Part shown: one piece after another, positions 1-32,934 of the stretch | Layout: each line of letters starts with the position of its first letter | Numbering within the stretch: position 1 is the stretch's first letter | Origin: a virus | Taxonomy: Duplodnaviria; Heunggongvirae; Uroviricota; Caudoviricetes | Length of the DNA: 34,456 nt | Strand: one strand, 5' to 3' | Virus record (IMG/VR): IMGVR_UViG_2609460219_000012 | Position numbers and translations under genes: made by a program | Notes under the pieces: model-generated | What the model was told of the DNA's origin: nothing | Seen by the model: the letters and a program-made list of their open reading frames with translations, nothing else | The model's database searches: none

Positions 1-1332
1 CGTGCCACGGCCTTTCGCCGGATTCAGCAACTGGACGAGGCAATGGTTGTTGCCTGCCGTGAAGGTGAACATGCACTGATGCATCTGATACCGGCACAAC
101 AACGAACTGTGGAACACCTGGACGCCATGCAGTGGATCAACGGCGACGGTTATCTGCATAACGTCTTTGTACGCTGGTTTAACGGTGATGTGATCCGCCC
201 GAAAACATGGTTCTGGCAGGATGTGAAAACCCGAAAAATTCTGGGCTGGCGCTGCGATGTGAGCGAGAACATTGATTCAATTCGCCTCTCGTTCATGGAT
301 GTTGTGACTCGCTACGGTATCCCGGAGGATTTTCACATCACCATTGATAACACCCGTGGTGCTGCGAATAAATGGCTGACGGGAGGCGCGCCCAATCGCT
401 ACCGCTTTAAGGTGAAAGAAGACGATCCAAAGGGGTTGTTTTTACTGATGGGTGCGAAAATGCACTGGACAAGCGTTGTTGCCGGTAAAGGCTGGGGCCA
501 GGCAAAACCTGTTGAACGTGCTTTCGGTGTTGGTGGGCTTGAGGAATACGTTGATAAACATCCGGCACTGGCTGGCGCATATACGGGGCCTAATCCGCAG
601 GCAAAACCTGATAACTATGGCGACCGCGCTGTTGATGCAGAGCTGTTTCTGAAAACCCTTGCCGAAGGTGTGGCGATGTTCAATGCCAGAACAGGCCGTG
701 AAACAGAAATGTGCGGGGGCAAACTCTCGTTTGATGATGTTTTCGAGCGTGAATACGCCAGAACGATTGTGCGTAAGCCAACCGAAGAACAAAAACGGAT
801 GCTGTTACTGCCTGCCGAGGCGGTGAACGTTTCACGCAAAGGCGAGTTTACGCTTAAAGTTGGCGGCACCCTTAAAGGCGCGAAAAACGTTTATTACAAC
901 ATGGCATTAATGAATGCCGGCGTGAAAAAAGTTGTGGTCAGGTTTGATCCGCAGCAGCTACACAGCACGGTTTATTGTTACACCCTGGACGGTCGGTTTA
1001 TCTGTGAAGCGGAATGTCTGGCACCTGTTGCATTTAATGATGCAGCGGCAGGCCGTGAATATCGCCGCCGCCAGAAACAACTGAAATCTGCGACGAAAGC
1101 AGCCGTTAAGGCGCAGAAACAAATGGACGCGCTGGAAGTTGCTGAACTGCTGCCGCAGATAGCCGAACCAGCAGCACCAGAATCAAGGGTTGTTGGTATT
1201 TTCCGGCCTTCCGGTAACACGGTGCAGGTGAAATACCAGGAAGCCGATGATGAATATGAAACTGATCGTGATGAATATCTGAATCATTCACTGGATATTC
1301 TGGAACAGAACAGACGTAAAAAAGCCATTTAA
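1..1332 (+). CDS. A: Transposase MuA, C-terminal ~443 codons (5' end truncated by window)
   Basis: Frame is open from base 1 with no stop; ORF track shows 429 aa from an internal Met at 43. Sits immediately upstream of B as in Mu. Confidence 0.85.
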
Positions 1333-1370
1333 TTAACGTTTAAACAAAATTTAATTACGAGGTTATTCAG

Positions 1371-2308
1371 ATGAATATTTCCGATATTCGCGCAGGACTG
1401 CGCACGCTTGTAGAAAATGAAGAAACCACTTTTAAACAAATTGCTCTTGAGAGCGGGCTTTCTACCGGAACTATCAGTAGTTTTATCAATGATAAGTACA
1501 ACGGGGATAACGAGCGTGTTTCACAAATGCTGCAACGCTGGCTGGAAAAATATCATGCAGTTGCAGAACTACCTGAACCGCCCCGCTTTGTGGAAACGCA
1601 GACGGTAAAACAAATCTGGACAAGTATGCGTTTTGCCAGCCTGACTGAAAGTATTGCTGTTGTATGTGGCAATCCTGGTGTGGGCAAAACCGAAGCGGCC
1701 CGTGAATATCGCCGCACCAATAACAATGTCTGGATGATCACCATTACGCCATCCTGTGCCAGCGTTCTGGAATGCCTGACTGAACTGGCGTTTGAGCTGG
1801 GAATGAATGACGCACCACGCCGTAAAGGGCCGCTCTCCCGCGCCCTGCGACGTCGCCTTGAAGGTACACAGGGGCTGGTTATCATCGACGAAGCTGATCA
1901 TCTTGGTGCCGAAGTTCTGGAAGAACTCCGCCTGTTACAGGAATCAACCGCACTGGCCTTGTGCTGATGGGAAATCACCGGGTTTATTCAAATATGACGG
2001 GGGGTAACAGAACGGTTGAATTTGCCCGTCTGTTTTCCCGTATTGCAAAGCGCACTGCAATTAATAAAACCAAAAAAGCCGATGTAAAAGCTATTGCGGA
2101 TGCCTGGCAGATTAACGGCGAAAATGAACTGGAGTTATTACAGCAGATTGCGCAGAAACCAGGTGCGCTTCGCATTCTGAATCATTCACTTCGCCTTGCC
2201 GCCATGACGGCTCACGGTAAAGGTGAGCGTGTTAACGAAGATTATCTGCGTCAGGCTTTCCGTGAATTAGACTTGGACGTTGATATTTCAACGCTGCTGC
2301 GTAATTAA
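1371..2308 (+). CDS. B: Transposition protein MuB (ATP-dependent target DNA activator); frame interrupted near 1945-1967
   Basis: Two consecutive ORFs (1371..1967, 1961..2308) together give the full-length B protein; Walker A-like motif GNPGVGKT; translation matches recalled Mu B. Strong RBS-less spacing after A. Confidence 0.85.
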
Positions 2309-2323
2309 GAAGGAGAAGAAATT

Positions 2324-2551
2324 ATGATGGCCCGAAATATAAAAATGGCAACGGATGCGCAGAACTGGTTACAGGCGCGCGGGAGTCATGTAAATGAATC
2401 ATATCTCGGCGTGGCGCGTCCGATTCTTGAAATCACTTACCCACCGGTGGAACTGGTAAAAAACGCGGTCAGGATTATGGAGCATAAGTCCGGGGTGGCC
2501 CGCTCTGTATGGACGGCCCGTCTTAATGGTTGTCAGATAATCTGGAGGTAG
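2324..2551 (+). CDS. kil: Small early protein, Kil-like by position and size (75 aa)
   Basis: First ORF after B, RBS aaggagaag upstream; position corresponds to Mu kil. Sequence identity not verified. Confidence 0.45.
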
Positions 2552-2558
2552 CATTTAA

Positions 2559-2771
2559 ATGATGGTGATAAACATTCACGATAATCTGGGAATCAGTAAG
2601 TTAATCAACCTTGATAATGTCAATGTAATGGAAACGACTGTTGAGGGCGGTGTTGCTTTTGAATTTATTGATGGTCACAGGCTGGTCGTTCATGTCGGCA
2701 ACCATCATCACGCAGAAAATGTGCTTTGTGAACTTAACAAAATCACAAATGCAACACCCGTTAATCAATAA
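2559..2771 (+). CDS. Hypothetical early protein (70 aa)
   Basis: ORF in Mu semi-essential early region, tightly packed after kil. Confidence 0.45.
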   Translation: MMVINIHDNLGISKLINLDNVNVMETTVEGGVAFEFIDGHRLVVHVGNHHHAENVLCELNKITNATPVNQ

Positions 2772-2782
2772 GGAGAAACAAA

Positions 2783-3046
2783 ATGGCAAAAGTAATTATT
2801 GAAATTAAAAATACAGTATCTGGAATAAAAGGACGGAATTTGCGCACCAGCATTGCGGTGGACGGTAGTGCGGAACTGGACGGTGATGAGGGTACACTTG
2901 CTGGCATGGTGGCGTTACTGGTGCTTAATAAAAGCCAGAAAATAATTAATGAGTCAGCCCATGAAGCCATTGAGATTTTGAAAAACGATGGTGTCATCAC
3001 AGGTGGCAGTGTCACTGAAATGGCTGTTGAAAAAACATGTCACTGA
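2783..3046 (+). CDS. Hypothetical early protein (87 aa)
   Basis: ORF with RBS aaggagaaac upstream; early region. Confidence 0.5.
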   Translation: MAKVIIEIKNTVSGIKGRNLRTSIAVDGSAELDGDEGTLAGMVALLVLNKSQKIINESAHEAIEILKNDGVITGGSVTEMAVEKTCH

Positions 3047-3480
3047 AAGGAACGCTGACAATGAACGTCAAAATCCGAAATGAAATTCAGGCATTAATCC
3101 GAATCCGGGAACGCAATAACAACGGTGGCGAATTACGCGAGTTTATTTGTGTGCGTGAAGTTGATGGTTGTGGTGAAAAGACTTACCTGATTGCTTTCGA
3201 CCATTACAGCATCTGTGCGCGTTATTGCGGCGAAAGCATATCCCGCGCCATTGCATTTGGCGGTGCGTTCAACGTGGATTTATGGGAGTACGTCATGGAC
3301 CGGGAATACATCTGCGCATCAGACCCTGAAGCCCGTGAAATGTGGCAGCGTATCTGGCGCGATTACCGGTTAATGGCAAAAGGCTGGGCGCGCTGCTGTT
3401 ATTCCTCGCTTGCCCTGAAAGCGGTTCAGTTATCGCTGCGGCATATTCCGGCATCACTGCGCGAGCCTCTGCTGTACTGA
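3037..3480 (+). CDS. Hypothetical early protein (147 aa; Met at 3061 is an alternative start)
   Basis: Continuous ORF overlapping previous stop; cysteine-rich; function unknown. Confidence 0.45.
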   Translation: MSLKGTLTMNVKIRNEIQALIRIRERNNNGGELREFICVREVDGCGEKTYLIAFDHYSICARYCGESISRAIAFGGAFNVDLWEYVMDREYICASDPEAREMWQRIWRDYRLMAKGWARCCYSSLALKAVQLSLRHIPASLREPLLY

Positions 3481-5652: not shown

Positions 5653-5714
5653 TATGAATAATGAAACTAAAACATTATTTTCCATAAAATCCACTCTGAT
5701 TGATGTGTAAATTC

Positions 5715-7484: not shown

Positions 7485-7907
7485 ATGCAGCATGATTTAT
7501 TTGAACACGATCCGGCAATTCGCCAGTTAATCGGACATATTAATAACATTCCGGCCCCGGAACTGGAATCACGCTGGCCCCGTTCGGTGGTTGATCTGAT
7601 TGATGTTCTGGAAAACGAACTGAAACGCCAGAACGTCAGCAATCCCCGTGAGCTTGCCCGTAAACAGGCCGTTGCCCTGTCCTGTTTTCTGGGCGGACGG
7701 CAGTTTTACATCCCCTGCGGCGATACGATCCTGACCGCGTTACGCGACGATTTGCTTTACTGCCAGTTCAATGGTCGTAACATGGAAGAACTGCGTCGCC
7801 AGTATCGCCTGTCCCAGCCGCAGATCTACCAGATTATTGCCCGCCAGAGAAAGCTGCATACACGACGTCATCAGCCTGATCTGTTCTCACCTGAAAGCCA
7901 GAAATAA
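7485..7907 (+). CDS. C: C, late gene transcription activator, 140 aa
   Basis: 140-aa ORF matching recalled Mu C; paralogous to Mor; RBS gggggaaaat upstream. Confidence 0.8.
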   Translation: MQHDLFEHDPAIRQLIGHINNIPAPELESRWPRSVVDLIDVLENELKRQNVSNPRELARKQAVALSCFLGGRQFYIPCGDTILTALRDDLLYCQFNGRNMEELRRQYRLSQPQIYQIIARQRKLHTRRHQPDLFSPESQK

Positions 7908-7930
7908 CCGGCATCCTGCCGGTTATTTCC
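7904..7930 (+). terminator. Hairpin ATAACCGGCA-tcc-TGCCGGTTAT after C (end of middle transcript); weak U tract
   Basis: 10-bp perfect stem read directly, overlapping the C stop codon. Confidence 0.5.
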
Positions 7931-7998
7931 TGTCACCATAATCCCGCACCTGCCATCTGATTTTTTAGACTGCCATCAGAGCATTTTTTCAGGGAAGC

Positions 7999-8517
7999 AT
8001 GATGGCGGGGATACCAAAAAAACTGAAAGCCGCACTGCTGGCGGCAACGATTGCCGGTGGCGGTGTGGGTGGTTATCAGGAAATGACCCGTCAGTCTCTG
8101 ATCCATCTGGAAAATATCGCTTATATGCCTTACCGCGATATTGCCGGTGTGCTTACGGTCTGTGTGGGACATACCGGGCCGGATATCGAAATGCGCCGTT
8201 ACAGCCATGCGGAGTGTATGGCTCTCCTCGACAGTGATTTAAAACCGGTTTATGCGGCAATCGTTCGTCTTGTCAGGGTGCCGCTGACGCCATATCAGAA
8301 AACGGCGCTGGCAACGTTTATTTTCAACACCGGTGTTACCGCATTCAGTAAATCAACGCTGCTGAAAAAACTCAATGCCGGTGATTACGCCGGAGCGCGT
8401 GACCAGATGGCCCGCTGGGTGTTTGCCGCAGGCCATAAATGGAAAGGACTGATGAACCGTCGCGAAGTGGAAATGGCTATCTGGAATATCAGGGGGGCGG
8501 ATGACCTTCGCCAGTAA
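7999..8517 (+). CDS. lys: Endolysin (lysozyme) with Gly/Ala-rich N-terminal signal-anchor-release-like segment, 172 aa
   Basis: Matches recalled Mu Lys; N-terminal KLKAALLAATIAGGGVGGY is weakly hydrophobic; first gene after C as in Mu. Confidence 0.75.
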   Translation: MMAGIPKKLKAALLAATIAGGGVGGYQEMTRQSLIHLENIAYMPYRDIAGVLTVCVGHTGPDIEMRRYSHAECMALLDSDLKPVYAAIVRLVRVPLTPYQKTALATFIFNTGVTAFSKSTLLKKLNAGDYAGARDQMARWVFAAGHKWKGLMNRREVEMAIWNIRGADDLRQ

Positions 8518-8788
8518 AAGTTTACTGCTGGCAGCCGTGTTTGCCGCCGTTCTGTCCGGGGTGTTGTGGCACAGGCTGGACAGCACCCGCCACGATAACC
8601 AGACGCTGCGCCGTGAATTACAGACGGAGCAACAGGCCCGCAACACGGCTGAATGGTTGTTACACAGTCAGGAACAGACGATGCAGGTATTTTCCGCTAT
8701 CCGTGCCGCAAATCGTGCCGCACGGCTGGCAGATGAGACAGAACATCATGATGCAAAACNAAAAAATTACAACCGCCATTACCGGTGA
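8501..8788 (+). CDS. i-spanin-like protein (N-terminal TM helix plus coiled coil), 95 aa
   Basis: TM segment LLLAAVFAAVLSGVLW then charged/Q-rich region; overlaps lys stop. Confidence 0.55.
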   Translation: MTFASKSLLLAAVFAAVLSGVLWHRLDSTRHDNQTLRRELQTEQQARNTAEWLLHSQEQTMQVFSAIRAANRAARLADETEHHDAKXKNYNRHYR

Positions 8789-10473: not shown

Positions 10474-10962
10474 TTACTGTAGCCGGGTGTTCAGATACTC
10501 AAACGGTGATTCAATGTCAAGCTGTGATTCACCGAGCACTTTATATGGGAGCTTCATTGCGTAATACAAATAAGCTACTGCAAATTTTGTTTGTGCCGAC
10601 TGAGAAAGTCCGACAGGGATGTGCATAAGTTCGGTGTTATTGGCGAGTGCATTAGTTACGCAGAGAATCGTTGCTTGATTATGGCGTTCCAGAAGAACAC
10701 GCCAGACAACTAATGGAATTTCTGACCAGTCATCATCCTTCATCAGAAAATCCTCAATGGCGTTATCTGCGGCTTTTTCAAATTGCTTTCTGTAGCTAAT
10801 CGTTCTGATTTGCTCTATGCGTGGTGTGAATCGTTCATTCAGGGGCCAAAGGCGCTGAAGTGTTTCCCATCCGTTTATTGAGACAAATTGAACAGTATCC
10901 ATAGATTGCTTTAATTCTGTTTCACAAAATATTTCAAGTAGTTTTATTGCTTTTGGTGACAT
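10474..10962 (-). CDS. Hypothetical protein, 162 aa, opposite strand, low-GC pocket between terminase genes
   Basis: Only long ORF across 10629-10960 on either strand; RBS GAGGG 6 nt before ATG on minus strand; sampled GC roughly 26-45% versus ~50% elsewhere. No recognisable motif. Confidence 0.5.
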   Translation of the reverse strand: MSPKAIKLLEIFCETELKQSMDTVQFVSINGWETLQRLWPLNERFTPRIEQIRTISYRKQFEKAADNAIEDFLMKDDDWSEIPLVVWRVLLERHNQATILCVTNALANNTELMHIPVGLSQSAQTKFAVAYLYYAMKLPYKVLGESQLDIESPFEYLNTRLQ

Positions 10963-12718
10963 GACGTTCCCTCAGGTATTTAAAGAAAACCGAAGTATTA
11001 TGGCTGAAAAAATAATGGGGTATGAAAAAAATAGCCGGGGCAAAAAACTGATTCCGTCAAGTGAACCCCGTCAGATTGATCTTCAGGAAGAAGCAACCAA
11101 ACTTGGTGTCGAGATCGTTACAGACATCACTAACGCCCAGCCATCTAATGAACCGGTTTTTCTGGGCTATCAGCGCCGCTGGTTTGAGGATGAAAGCCAG
11201 ATTTGTATTGCTGAAAAATCCCGTCGTACCGGTCTGACATNGGCCGAAGCGGGCCGCAATGTCATGACGGCAGCAAAGCCGCGTCGCCGTGGCGGTCGCA
11301 ACGTTTTTTATGTGGGTTCCCGTCAGGAAATGGCGCTGGAATACATTGCCGCCTGTGCCCTGTTTGCCCGCGCCTTTAACCAACTGGCAAAGGCTGACGT
11401 ATGGGAGCAGACCTTCTGGGACAGCGACAAAAAAGAAGAAATCCTCACTTATATGATCCGTTTCCCTAACAGCGGATTTAAGGTGCAGGCGCTGTCAAGC
11501 CGTCCGTCTAACCTGCGTGGTTTGCAGGGGGACGTGGTGATTGATGAGGCGGCATTTCATGAAGCCCTGGACGAACTCCTGAAAGCGGCCTTTGCTCTCA
11601 CCATGTGGGGTGCCCGCGTGCGGATCATATCGACACATAACGGCGTCGATAACCTGTTTAACCAGTACATTCAGGATGCGCGCGAGGGGCGCAAGGATTA
11701 CAGCGTTCACCGCATCACGCTGGATGATGCCATCGCTGACGGGTTGTACCGACGTATCTGTTACGTCACGAATCAGCCGTGGTCGCCGGAAGCGGAAAAA
11801 GCCTGGCGTGATGGCCTGTACCGGAATGCGCCGAATAAAGAGAGTGCCGACGAGGAATACGGCTGCATTCCTAAAAAATCCGGGGGCGCTTATCTGTCAC
11901 GCGTGCTGATTGAAGCCGCCATGACGCCAGCGCGGGATATCCCGATTCTGCGTTTTGAAGCCCCGGACGATTTTGAATCGCTGACACCACAAATGCGCCA
12001 CGGCATCGTTCAGGACTGGTGTGAACAGGAGCTGCTCCCGTTGCTCGATGCGCTGTCGCCGCTCAATAAACACGTACTGGGCGAAGACTTTGCACGCCGT
12101 GGCGACCTGACGGTGTTTGTGCCGCTTGCCATCACGCCTGACTTACGCAAACGCGAATGTTTCCGCGTGGAGCTGCGTAATGTGACCTATGACCAGCAGC
12201 GACAAATCCTTTTATTCATTCTGTCCCGTTTGCCCCGTTTTACCGGCGCTGCATTTGATGCCACCGGTAACGGCGGTTATCTGGCAGAAGCCGCCCGTCT
12301 GATTTATGGCCCGGAGATGATCGACTGTGTGAATCTGACCGCATCCTGGTATCAGGAGTGGATGCCAAAACTGAAAGGCGAGTTTGAAGCGCAGAACATC
12401 ACGATTGCCCGGCACCAGACCACACTTGATGACCTGCTCCACATCAAGGTGGACAAAGGTATTCCGCAGATTGATAAGGGGCGCACAAAAGATGAAGGCG
12501 GTAAAGGCCGACGACATGGCGACTTTGCCGTGGCGCTCTGTATGGCTGTCAGGGCGTCTTATATGAATGGTTTTGTTATCGACGAGGACAGCATACAGGC
12601 GCTGCCACCACGCCACCGTGGTGATGATGTTGATAACGATGATTTTGATGATTATCACCAGTTTGAACGAGGGGCTGGTAATGGGCCGTATTCTGGATAT
12701 TTCCGGGCAGCCGTTTGA
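10961..12718 (+). CDS. Terminase large subunit (possibly gene E); true start may be Met at 11000 or 11015
   Basis: 585-aa ORF immediately upstream of portal; acidic/ATPase-like segments (VVIDEAAF). 5' end overlaps the minus-strand ORF start by 2 nt. Confidence 0.7.
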   Translation: MTFPQVFKENRSIMAEKIMGYEKNSRGKKLIPSSEPRQIDLQEEATKLGVEIVTDITNAQPSNEPVFLGYQRRWFEDESQICIAEKSRRTGLTXAEAGRNVMTAAKPRRRGGRNVFYVGSRQEMALEYIAACALFARAFNQLAKADVWEQTFWDSDKKEEILTYMIRFPNSGFKVQALSSRPSNLRGLQGDVVIDEAAFHEALDELLKAAFALTMWGARVRIISTHNGVDNLFNQYIQDAREGRKDYSVHRITLDDAIADGLYRRICYVTNQPWSPEAEKAWRDGLYRNAPNKESADEEYGCIPKKSGGAYLSRVLIEAAMTPARDIPILRFEAPDDFESLTPQMRHGIVQDWCEQELLPLLDALSPLNKHVLGEDFARRGDLTVFVPLAITPDLRKRECFRVELRNVTYDQQRQILLFILSRLPRFTGAAFDATGNGGYLAEAARLIYGPEMIDCVNLTASWYQEWMPKLKGEFEAQNITIARHQTTLDDLLHIKVDKGIPQIDKGRTKDEGGKGRRHGDFAVALCMAVRASYMNGFVIDEDSIQALPPRHRGDDVDNDDFDDYHQFERGAGNGPYSGYFRAAV

Positions 12719-15519: not shown

Positions 15520-15985
15520 GTCTTGATATGAACGTTGCCGTGGATGTGCGACGTATTCAGCTTGCGCTGGATGAACTGGGAACCGCCACACGTGACCGCG
15601 TCATTCCCCGTGTGATAGCTGCGGCGCTGCTGTCATCCACGGAACAGGCATTTGAACGGCAGGCAGACCCGGATACAGGGAAAGGCTGGGAAGCGTGGAG
15701 CGATTCGTGGCTGGCATGGCGTCAGGATCATGGTTTTGTTCCGGGCAGTATTCTTACCCTGCATGGCGATCTGGCACGCAGCATTACCACCGATTATGGA
15801 CAGGATTATGCCTGATTGGTTCGCCAAAAATTTATGCTGCCATTCATCAGTGGGGCGGTACACCCGATATGGCACCCCGCCCGGCAGGCGTTCCTGCGCG
15901 TCCTTATATGGGGCTGGATAAGACCGGGGAACAGGAAATTTTTGATGCCATCAGAAAACGCGTCAGCGCCGCTCTGAGGCAATAA
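15516..15985 (+). CDS. G: Virion morphogenesis protein G; frame interrupted near 15800-15815
   Basis: Two ORFs (15516..15815, 15695..15985) join into one ~156-aa protein if a single base is restored at the gcc-tga-ttg junction; GTG start with GGAGG 7 nt upstream. Confidence 0.6.
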
Positions 15986-29581: not shown

Positions 29582-30768
29582 TGTTTTATATTGATAACGA
29601 CAGCGGCGTAACCGTCATGCCGCCCGTATCCGCCCAGCGTAGTGCTATCGTTCGCTGGTTTTCAGAAGGTGACGGGAATAATGTTATCACATGGCCCGGC
29701 ATGGACTGGTTTAATATTGTGCAGGCGGAGTTATTAAACACGCTGGAAGAAGCCGGTATTCAACCGGATAAAACAAAATTAAACCAGCTTGCACTGTCCA
29801 TTAAAGCCATCATGAACAAGAACGCGCTGCTGATAAAAAATAACCTCAGCGAAATTAAAACTGCCGGGGCATCAGCACAGCGTACAGCACGTGAAAATCT
29901 GGATATCTATGATGCCAGCCTGAACAAAAAAGGACTCGTTCAGCTAACCAGTGCCACTGACAGCCCCAGTGAAACGCTGGCAGCCACCGCAAAAGCGGTG
30001 AAAATTGCGATGGATAATGCCAATGCCCGTCTGGCAAAAGACCGGAACGGAGCAGATATTCCCAATAAGCCGCTGTTTATCCAAAACCTCGGTTTACAGG
30101 AAACTGTAAAATTAGCTTCGGAAGCGTTATCAACATATGGCGGGGTGGTTAACGGTGATGTGATTATCAAGGGCATTCTCTCGTTAATTGGGAATGAATT
30201 ACTTATTGAAAAAGATAATGGCTTTTCTGGTATTCACATCAGAAACAAGAGCACGGTTGCAGGGAGTGCAAATGGAGTCGACTTTTCATTTGGCGGTGCG
30301 ATTATGTCGTCGCTCATTTGCGGAATAATGGAAAATGGCGCGAACTACATAGACGTTGCATTGTCTCCGGCAGGCAATATTTCTGACCGCCGTCTGCTTG
30401 CATTTACTTTGGATGGAAATATCAGGCAGTTAATTCCCCGGAATGGATGGAGCATTCAGGGATATACAAAAAACAGTGATTTTACCCAGGCGATGGCTGA
30501 TGCTGGTTGGGTCCGTTTTCCAAATGGCATCATTTTTCAATGGTGTTGGGGGAATACTGATGCCAGTGGCTGGGCATCTGCCCCGTTTCCTGTTGGCTGG
30601 CCTGTTCGTTGCTTTGGTTTGTTAGCCTGTAACGTTGCTGGTGACTCGATAGCAAGTGCAATTGCGGGTGTTAAAAGATTAAATGATCGCGATATGCAGG
30701 TCACGTTAATGGAAAGGTCTGGGGTTGCTGTTTCTAAACCATTCTTCTGTATTGGTGTGGGGTGTTAA
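29581..30768 (+). CDS. S: Tail fibre protein S: constant part (29581-~30087) fused to the variable part carried by the invertible segment in its present orientation
   Basis: 395-aa ORF that crosses the left gix repeat; shares the IQNLGLQETV junction peptide with the opposite-strand variable segment. Confidence 0.75.
   Translation: MFYIDNDSGVTVMPPVSAQRSAIVRWFSEGDGNNVITWPGMDWFNIVQAELLNTLEEAGIQPDKTKLNQLALSIKAIMNKNALLIKNNLSEIKTAGASAQRTARENLDIYDASLNKKGLVQLTSATDSPSETLAATAKAVKIAMDNANARLAKDRNGADIPNKPLFIQNLGLQETVKLASEALSTYGGVVNGDVIIKGILSLIGNELLIEKDNGFSGIHIRNKSTVAGSANGVDFSFGGAIMSSLICGIMENGANYIDVALSPAGNISDRRLLAFTLDGNIRQLIPRNGWSIQGYTKNSDFTQAMADAGWVRFPNGIIFQWCWGNTDASGWASAPFPVGWPVRCFGLLACNVAGDSIASAIAGVKRLNDRDMQVTLMERSGVAVSKPFFCIGVGC
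30077..30104 (+). repeat. gixL, left recombination site of G inversion (28-bp perfect inverted repeat with 32854-32881)
   Basis: ttatccaaaacctcggtttacaggaaac read directly; exact reverse complement found at 32854-32881. Confidence 0.85.
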
Positions 30769-30770
30769 TC

Positions 30771-31247
30771 ATGTCCAGTAAAATATTCTATAGTGCCAGG
30801 AATAATACGTTTTTCTTTGAATCCATGAAACCGGACTATGAAAAATCAGGCGCATGGCCTGACGATTTGGTGGCAGTCACAAACGATATGTATGAAGAGT
30901 TTACGGGAAGACCGCCAGAGGGAAAAAAGAGAGGCCGTGATGAATCTGGTTTCCCTACATGGATTGATGTATCAGAACCAACAACAGAGCAGTTAATCGC
31001 ATTAAAAGAGCAGAAGAAAAAGGATTTAGCTGAGATTGCGAACACAGAAATTGCCTGGCGGCAGGATGCTGTTGACGCAGGGATGGCGACAGAAGCAGAA
31101 ATCACAGTGCTGGCTGAATGGAAAAAATATCGTGTGCTGCTTATGCGTATTGATACATCAACCGCGACGGATATTGAGTGGCCCGCTGTTCCAGACGAAC
31201 AAAGCGGCAAAGAGAGCAGCGCAGAGGATGTGAAAACGACGCTATAA
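30771..31247 (+). CDS. U: Tail fibre assembly chaperone U (present orientation), 158 aa from ATG 30771
   Basis: Follows S; ORF track frame starts at GTG 30762. Confidence 0.65.
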   Translation: MSSKIFYSARNNTFFFESMKPDYEKSGAWPDDLVAVTNDMYEEFTGRPPEGKKRGRDESGFPTWIDVSEPTTEQLIALKEQKKKDLAEIANTEIAWRQDAVDAGMATEAEITVLAEWKKYRVLLMRIDTSTATDIEWPAVPDEQSGKESSAEDVKTTL

Positions 31248-31373
31248 TACCAGCACAATTATTATCATTTTGGTTATTTTGTATTTCCTTGCTTTCCGCA
31301 GTCATGTGGATATGGAAAAGCCTGGATGGCCACAAAAGCCTGAGTAAAATTAAGGCCCGATAACGGGCCTTTC

Positions 31374-31907
31374 TCATTCTGGTTGTTCGGGGAATGTTAC
31401 CGGCAGGCTGGAGGTGTCTGTGGATTCGACTTTCTGCGCAAAGAGCATCCACTCTGTTAATTTTTGTTTATTCTCGTCGGAAATGATGCCCAGCCGTAGC
31501 TGTGAGTCCCATAGCTGGGTTTTATCCCTGACAAGTTGCAACAGGCTTTGCTTTTCATTCTCTGCCTGCTGCCTCTGTTCCTCCTCGGTATAAGTTCGCT
31601 TTATCACTACGCCATCTTTGAACATCCATTTACCCGAAATATCAGCCCGGCGATTTGCTGTAATATCAGGAACCTCAACGACGCTTGCGCCTTCTGGATT
31701 AATTGCTGAAACATCCTTTTCAATACAAATAATAACGCCGTTGTGGTCATAGACCATTTTCAACGTATCTGGCTGGAAATTCTTTTGTTCCTCATACCAG
31801 TTTTTTCCATCCTCTGTATAAAGCCATTTGATGTTAAATTGTTTCGTTAGCTGGTATTGCTCTTTTGTTTTAGGGTTGCCAGCTGTAATATTTTTTAAGT
31901 GCATCAT
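31374..31907 (-). CDS. Alternative tail fibre assembly chaperone U', 177 aa
   Basis: Minus-strand ORF inside the G segment, downstream of the alternative fibre tip. Confidence 0.65.
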   Translation of the reverse strand: MMHLKNITAGNPKTKEQYQLTKQFNIKWLYTEDGKNWYEEQKNFQPDTLKMVYDHNGVIICIEKDVSAINPEGASVVEVPDITANRRADISGKWMFKDGVVIKRTYTEEEQRQQAENEKQSLLQLVRDKTQLWDSQLRLGIISDENKQKLTEWMLFAQKVESTDTSSLPVTFPEQPE

Positions 31908-31909
31908 AA

Positions 31910-32853
31910 TTAAATACTCCCCGCGTTATACCACGTCCCATTAATGCAATACTGAATTGGCCTTGCCTGAGTTGTATCAATTAATTCATCACGGTTTCCG
32001 TTAACTGAACCCGTAACGACATAACCTGACCTGTCAGACCAGCCGGGACCATTCCATGTCTGAACAGATGACAGACCGCCAAGGCGAATACCTGTAATAA
32101 ACCTTGAGTTACATTCTGCCTGCGTATATGCACCAACATCTCCCGCAGAGGGTTTGCGGGTTGTGGTGTAAAACTCTGACCAGTCAGCTTCAAAGCCATA
32201 ACCATCACGCGCTGAACGATAATAGATACCGCCATTTCTGTAATTCACGCGGAACTGTACAGCAGGGCAGCTCCCCGTATTCATATTGAAGTGGAGGATT
32301 AATGTCGATGCGCCACTGATAGCTGCATCATAAACGCCGCTATTCCAGTTCCAGCCAACAGCTTTGTCGTTTGCAACCCTGCTTCCTGTTTGCCCTAAAG
32401 CAAATGCAGGCTGCTGATTTTTCGTGTTGTAGTCACGCCGCCAGCCTGGCGCATAAGCATCACCATGATTAATATAAGTGAATTGAGCGTTAGTGATTCC
32501 GCCGCCGCTGGACGTGCTCGGCGTGGTAACGCGTATGGTCATTGCGCCGCGAGTGCCAATAACTTCCACCACAGCACCTGCAAGACAAATATTTCCGCAA
32601 CCTGTATCTGTAATGACCTTATTGTTTGCATAAGCCCATGAGCCTTTGCACATCCAGTAAGGATGGTTAAATGCCCCCTGACTCTCCAGCCACGAAATAA
32701 ATTGTGCGGTTGTCCAGACCTGACTATCGCCACCAATATTCAGCCATGCGCTATATGCGCGACAGGCCCCAATATTTTTGGTGAAGGTATCTTTTCCTGG
32801 AATATCTGCACCGTTCTGGTTTTTCTGTAATGCGCCAGAAGCCTGATTTACCG
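31910..32853 (-). CDS. Alternative tail fibre variable segment S'v (C-terminal part only; expressed only after inversion fuses it to the S constant part)
   Basis: Minus-strand ORF 31910..33106; only the part inside the gix boundary is meaningful; Gly/Ser/Asn-rich fibre-tip-like sequence. Confidence 0.65.
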
Positions 32854-32881
32854 TTTCCTGTAAACCGAGGTTTTGGATAAT
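32854..32881 (-). repeat. gixR, right recombination site of G inversion
   Basis: Exact reverse complement of 30077-30104. Confidence 0.85.
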
Positions 32882-32934
32882 GGCTGTTTCCGGCCTGCAT
32901 GGCATGATTTGCGCTTTTAAACGGGAGATCCAGA

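Follow-up and report, generated by a model that had tools for sequence, protein, structure and literature searches.

Amber and truncated alleles of gene B are known from the B-defective mutants of phage Mu. The gene encodes MuB, an AAA+ target-DNA activator with two Pfam domains, PF13401 (AAA_22) and then PF09077 (Phage-MuB_C). Structures of MuB include 8xvb, 1f6v and 2mqk, and the full-length protein has been solved under the name 'ATP-dependent target DNA activator B'. Mutation of either R224 or R268 strongly lowers the ATPase activity of MuB (PMC11292022). Mutants in the ATPase pocket and in the DNA-binding residues are, in addition, impaired in filament formation (PMC11292022). Our residue numbering follows that cryo-EM paper throughout. 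For E10-E12 and N, remarks in the RefSeq record of Mu (at Mup11 and Mup43) mention frameshifts that were errors of earlier sequencing.

Here we analyse a Mu-like element in which B is written as two pieces in two reading frames. Judged from the sequence record, this frame break is very probably an artefact of sequence determination, namely the undercall of a homopolymer.

The window and its place among Mu-like phages

By the window we mean the whole stretch of DNA analysed here, 34,456 bases long. It is a phage genome of the Mu/D108 type (Muvirus) with about 98% identity to Mu. Block by block it is 96-99% identical to Mu (NC_000929), D108 (GQ357916), Mu_3F6 and many E. coli prophages, and its overall G+C content is 52.5%. 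By tblastn, the window opens within the transposase gene A, with Mu residue 221, and extends as far as the end of mom.

1..1332, + strand, 3' part of the transposase gene A (tblastn to Mu A residues 221-663, 98.2% identity, frame 1)

The window contains no c/ner, no attL or attR, neither of the two Mu ends and no host DNA. The earlier note had spoken of a prophage; since the window has neither Mu ends nor host flanks, it does not establish that status. Its two ends (positions 1 and 34456) look like those of a contig that was broken within the element, as is seen when a genome carries more than one Mu-like copy, and they are no evidence for or against integration.

Several regions set the element apart from Mu. 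The invertible G segment occupies 30077..32893. Its minus-strand pair (31377..32893) is 97-99% identical to Mu S'/U'; for the plus-strand Sv/U part (about 30195..31350), Mu has nothing that matches closely. The alignment of the entire segment with Mu_3F6 is inverted. The gp14/gp15 region of Mu (Mu 7672-8149) is missing at window position 5671/5672, and the gp6/gp7 region (2551..3046) carries an allele that differs from those of both Mu and D108; this is ordinary mosaicism in the semi-essential early region. Between gp27 and the terminase large subunit lies an insert of roughly 600 bp, present neither in Mu nor in D108, which holds a minus-strand ORF of 162 aa (10474..10962). The public collection lists an identical protein in 486 blocks; in 7 of the 7 loci shown it occupies the same position in a Mu-like prophage. 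The ORF gave no match to Pfam or PHROG, and a PADLOC match at chance level only. It is a moron.

Gene B is written in two frames

The order of the early operon is that of Mu: A ends at 1332, B starts at 1371, and kil, gam and the rest follow. The parts of B are these:

1371..2308, + strand, gene B, encoding the AAA+ target-DNA activator MuB; length 938 nt, one less than the 939 nt of all relatives
1371..1967, + strand, first piece of B: native residues 1-193, then five out-of-frame residues (ALALC), then TGA
1947..1949, + strand, the lesion: codon ACC (T193), with a run of two C (1948-1949) where the relatives have three (ACC CGC)
1949..2308, + strand, second piece of B: MuB residues 194-312, in the -1 frame

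According to the earlier note, B is split into ORFs 1371..1967 and 1961..2308 that jointly make up the full-length protein; the ORF list, tblastn and Pfam all agree with this description. In the ORF list the first piece is 198 aa long and in frame 3, and the second (1961..2308) is 115 aa long and in frame 2. The GTG at 1961 is a mechanical ORF start only, and homology in the second frame begins already at 1949. Using tblastn, Mu B residues 1-198 match frame 3 and residues 194-312 match frame 2, with no other stop or gap. AAA_22 is found in the first piece (3e-19) and Phage-MuB_C in the second (1e-34), both above the curated cut-offs and together in the intact domain order of Mu B. The first piece contains the N-terminal domain, Walker A (G100-T107), the DNA-binding loop R150-K152 and Walker B (D173/E174). 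The second contains the arginine finger R224, the sensor II residue R268 and the C-terminal domain, that is, R224 and R268 fall in the second frame of the sequence as written.

Aligned with Mu, D108 and a prophage of E. coli RM8082, the window reads ACCGC at 1947-1951 against ACCCGC in these relatives: one C is missing. In codons, the window has TCA ACC GCA where the relatives have TCA ACC CGC or TCA ACC CGT. The alignment confirms the one-base indel that the earlier note had placed within 1940-1970, and the comparison with reference Mu B pins the lesion to the ACCCGC run of a gene that is 939 nt long in the relatives. The description of the junction as GC-rich is weaker: G+C makes up 58% of 1940-1970, compared with 52.5% over the whole window, and what counts here is the C homopolymer. 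While an uninterrupted B frame of about 312 codons is absent from the sequence as written, it is regained on restoring one C. The repaired translation has Walker A T107, the R150-K152 loop, Walker B, R224 and R268.

B in relatives and public collections

The B gene spans 939 nt and is annotated as intact in 15 of 15 phage records, and likewise in every E. coli entry of more than 95% identity among the matches listed from a set of 5426 complete genomes. The same C gap opens in the window's B against each of four full phage or prophage loci (L004-L007) and against six of seven further prophage loci (L027-L033). One of the latter, L032, has a more divergent B allele of 310 aa and gives no alignment at the lesion site. 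With one C restored, the B of the window encodes 312 aa with no difference from the MuB allele P0028, which is recorded on at least 1000 public contigs.

To look for the broken allele, we scanned with DNA patterns spanning the junction, some exact and some degenerate. There were 0 occurrences of the CC allele in genome_contigs (two scans; this collection holds one genome per species, which limits the search), viral_contigs and metagenome_contigs, while the control pattern with CCC retrieved 19 IMG/VR loci. At the protein level, none of the 120 best matches ends in ESTALALC, and 114 of the 120 are 312 aa long. With the 198-aa piece as query, the protein search yielded nothing but full-length MuB and partial proteins at contig ends, and no cluster of truncated B. 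An exact-product search has the 198-aa B product not on record, and the same is true of the 208-aa piece of I and of a 147-aa ORF at 3037..3480.

A second assembly of the same element, at more than 99.9% identity, was not found via the 162-aa ORF at 10474..10962. The closest relative (L029) is 99.3% identical over 15 kb, and the best relatives lie at 98.9-99.3%; these are not the same strain, but they suffice to show that the indels are private. In the A-B block (1..2547) the private substitutions of the window number 38, and none of four relatives has more than 4. Its A allele is therefore distinct, though the repaired B protein is the common allele.

Similar one-base breaks elsewhere in the window

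The break in B does not stand by itself. We compared the whole window with 11 relatives, comprising the four full-length ones and the seven further prophage loci, and found one-base shortenings of short base runs, private to the window, at the end of gp28 and in G, I/Z, gp42, gp46 and mom. None of these sister changes is seen in any of the 11 relatives (0/11). The sites, with the remaining one-base changes, are:

8760, + strand, gp23 (Rz-like spanin): an extra N before an A6 run, not in the relatives; 95 aa as written, 128 aa without the N
12671..12675 (site 12675), + strand, last codons of gp28 (terminase large subunit): GGGGG written as GGGG; the reference end is regained on restoring the base
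15811..15813 (site 15813), + strand, gene G: CCC written as CC; 99 aa, restored 156 aa
16804..16806 (site 16805), + strand, I/Z (protease/scaffold): CCC of D108-type relatives written as CC; 208 aa, restored 361 aa
23445..23446 (site 23446), + strand, gp42 (tape measure): GG written as G; 405 aa, restored 690 aa
27878..27879 (site 27879), + strand, gp46 (baseplate): GGG written as GG; 125 aa, restored 145 aa
33804..33805 (site 33805), + strand, mom, broken: AA written as A
31350 and 31372, U/U' intergenic terminator region: one-base gaps, of which 31350 shortens an A run and 31372 lies outside any run

Frame switches were detected by tblastn in B, gp23, G, I, gp42, gp46 and mom. Adding back a single base (or, in gp23, deleting the N) is enough to regain the exact reference lengths of B (312 aa), G (156), I (361), gp42 (690), gp46 (145) and gp23 (128). 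Over a collinear alignment of 26 kb, the private changes of the window amount to 6 one-base deletions and 122 substitutions; pooled over four relatives, the same alignment has no private deletion, 1 private insertion and 456 private substitutions. The excess of private indels in the window is significant (Fisher p = 6e-4). The lesion in B, itself in a base run and private to this record, is thus of a class that recurs across the record, with seven other genes affected and two intergenic one-base gaps, and the Ns at run starts described below are an independent sign of low base-call quality.

Isolated Ns and the signature of selection

The window contains 17 isolated Ns:

4021, 5425, 6678, 7420, 8760, 9217, 11241, 17384, 18922, 20633, 21113, 24062, 24888, 27134, 33544, 33981 and 34225, isolated Ns

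At 16 of the 17, the N takes the place of the first base of a homopolymer, as the base that every matchable relative has there equals the base that follows. The exception is the N at 8760, which is an additional base before the A6 run and corresponds to no base in any relative. By comparison with the relatives, the 16 Ns replace 12 C, 3 G/A and 1 T. The first positions of runs make up 19.7% of the window, and the chance of the observed pattern is about 5e-12. Because the Ns stand at the starts of homopolymers, the consensus caller appears to have been unsure of run lengths. We also considered that the Ns might be collapsed polymorphism between two Mu copies, and rejected this because all matchable relatives agree in the base at each N site.

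The codon changes private to the window comprise 81 synonymous, 29 non-synonymous and 0 nonsense changes. In four relatives the corresponding synonymous to non-synonymous counts are 106:45, 71:18, 56:21 and 56:23; the proportions in the window match those of these relatives and of finished phages. A tblastn comparison with Mu found no internal stop made by substitution in any gene, and protein identity to Mu is 95-100%. The window has no sign of relaxed selection in the form of a raised non-synonymous fraction, nonsense codons or larger deletions. This profile is not that of a decaying element with eight frameshifts, and, apart from the one-base changes, the genome looks to be under normal purifying selection.

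Artefact, mutation or expression across the break

The earlier note had left the choice between a sequencing error and an inactivating mutation that would make the prophage transposition-defective. Its account did not include the series of sister breaks, and it is because the break in B is one of a series of like breaks that error is strongly favoured over mutation; a transposition-defective prophage is unlikely. Mutation by homopolymer slippage does nonetheless occur, many prophages are defective, and the sequence as given encodes exactly such a truncated B. Genuine slippage mutations also prefer homopolymers, which means that run context alone does not discriminate, and a single indel may be genuine even in an error-prone record. 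Moreover, the residues lost in the truncated B are needed for the ATPase activity of MuB (PMC11292022). However, a genuine and very recent -1 mutation inactivating B would require either that eight private frameshifts arose together, in a genome whose dN/dS is normal and which lacks nonsense codons, or that the change in B alone is a true event and its seven look-alikes are errors. It is precisely in run lengths that the Ns mark the record as unreliable, B is otherwise unchanged from the common intact allele, and no second occurrence of the broken B came up in any collection searched. We consider such a mutation unlikely. Were the deletion real, the product would be residues 1-193 followed by ALALC, lacking R224, R268 and the C-terminal domain; a B truncated in this way would be without ATP hydrolysis, filaments and MuA activation, which would give the element a defect in replicative transposition. 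That the locus represents a fresh MuB truncation (1-193), possibly accompanied by a C-terminal fragment re-initiated at TGATG, in a transposition-impaired Mu prophage is decidedly improbable, and it would then be one more B-defective Mu-like prophage, of a kind that is already known. The same thought may be extended to the whole element, as eight genes are broken as written: it could be a decaying, cryptic prophage in which all eight frame breaks are real. This is very hard to reconcile with about 50 genes free of nonsense substitutions, large deletions and IS insertions, with proteins that are 95-100% identical to those of Mu, and with a private synonymous to non-synonymous ratio equal to that of functional phages. 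Nearly every lesion either shortens a short run or is an N where a run begins, a pattern that suits a problem of the caller and not neutral decay; we give a cryptic prophage very little credence.

It could also be that the sequence is correct and B is expressed across the break, by a programmed -1 ribosomal frameshift, by transcriptional slippage or by termination and reinitiation at TGATG (1965-1969). The downstream part of B is in the -1 frame, and the first piece ends in a TGA (1965-1967) whose last base is also the first base of the ATG for M200 (1967-1969), an arrangement of the coupling type. Several features speak against this reading: TGATG is what the native CTG ATG gives in the shifted frame, and all intact relatives have it, 1947-1967 (ACC GCA CTG GCC TTG TGC TGA) contains no slippery heptamer of the form X XXY YYZ, and a run of two C is far too short for polymerase slippage. 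A split would also take residues 194-199 out of the AAA+ core. The relatives, on thousands of contigs, have a single frame, and none of them uses a split B. On the sequence we rejected a programmed frameshift, transcriptional slippage and a split gene alike, and regard expression across the break as extremely improbable.

We are thus left with the homopolymer undercall. A technical cause is favoured because the sister shortenings are private, the Ns fall at runs, selection is normal, the repaired allele is the common one and the CC allele is absent from the collections searched; taken together, this pattern almost certainly reflects the way in which the sequence was determined. The consensus caller would have under-counted the C homopolymer and written CC for CCC at 1947-1949. 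Where a run length was undecided, an N would have been placed at the first base of the run, and where the shorter length was chosen, a one-base 'deletion' would have resulted. The actual molecule most likely carries an intact B of 939 nt that encodes a normal MuB of 312 aa. More generally, the record appears to have a systematic fault in the lengths of short base runs. Run-length faults of this type are typical of flow-based or otherwise homopolymer-sensitive chemistry, or of thin coverage, and one of these may apply to this record.

An annotation that took the record as written would make B a false pseudogene, split seven other genes falsely and suggest a defective prophage. One-base differences in run length, and the Ns, are in this record best treated as consensus errors before they are given a biological reading.

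Comparison with known systems

Errors in homopolymer length are known from flow-based and nanopore data. The window resembles draft consensus sequences with such errors in its one-base run shortenings in otherwise intact genes and in its ambiguity codes at run starts, an assignment made by pattern only. The likeness to B-minus Mu phages is conditional: if the truncation were present in the DNA molecule itself, it would likewise remove the regions needed for ATPase activity and MuA stimulation.

A close counterpart is Mu B itself (NC_000929 Mup04, NP_050608). The B of the window follows A, as in Mu, and is 98.9% identical to Mu B at the DNA level over 938/939 nt. The two have the AAA_22 and Phage-MuB_C domains in common, and the repaired product of the window is 312 aa long. 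Unlike Mu B, the window has one C fewer at codon 193/194 and, as written, a split frame; a few of its substitutions relative to Mu are common with D108, for example RTG for RIG at 194-196. D108 B (GQ357916) is closer, with 99.4% DNA identity to the B of the window, and the protein of P0028, an allele of E. coli and Salmonella prophages, is that of the repaired window B. Compared with D108 B and P0028, the missing C is the only difference.
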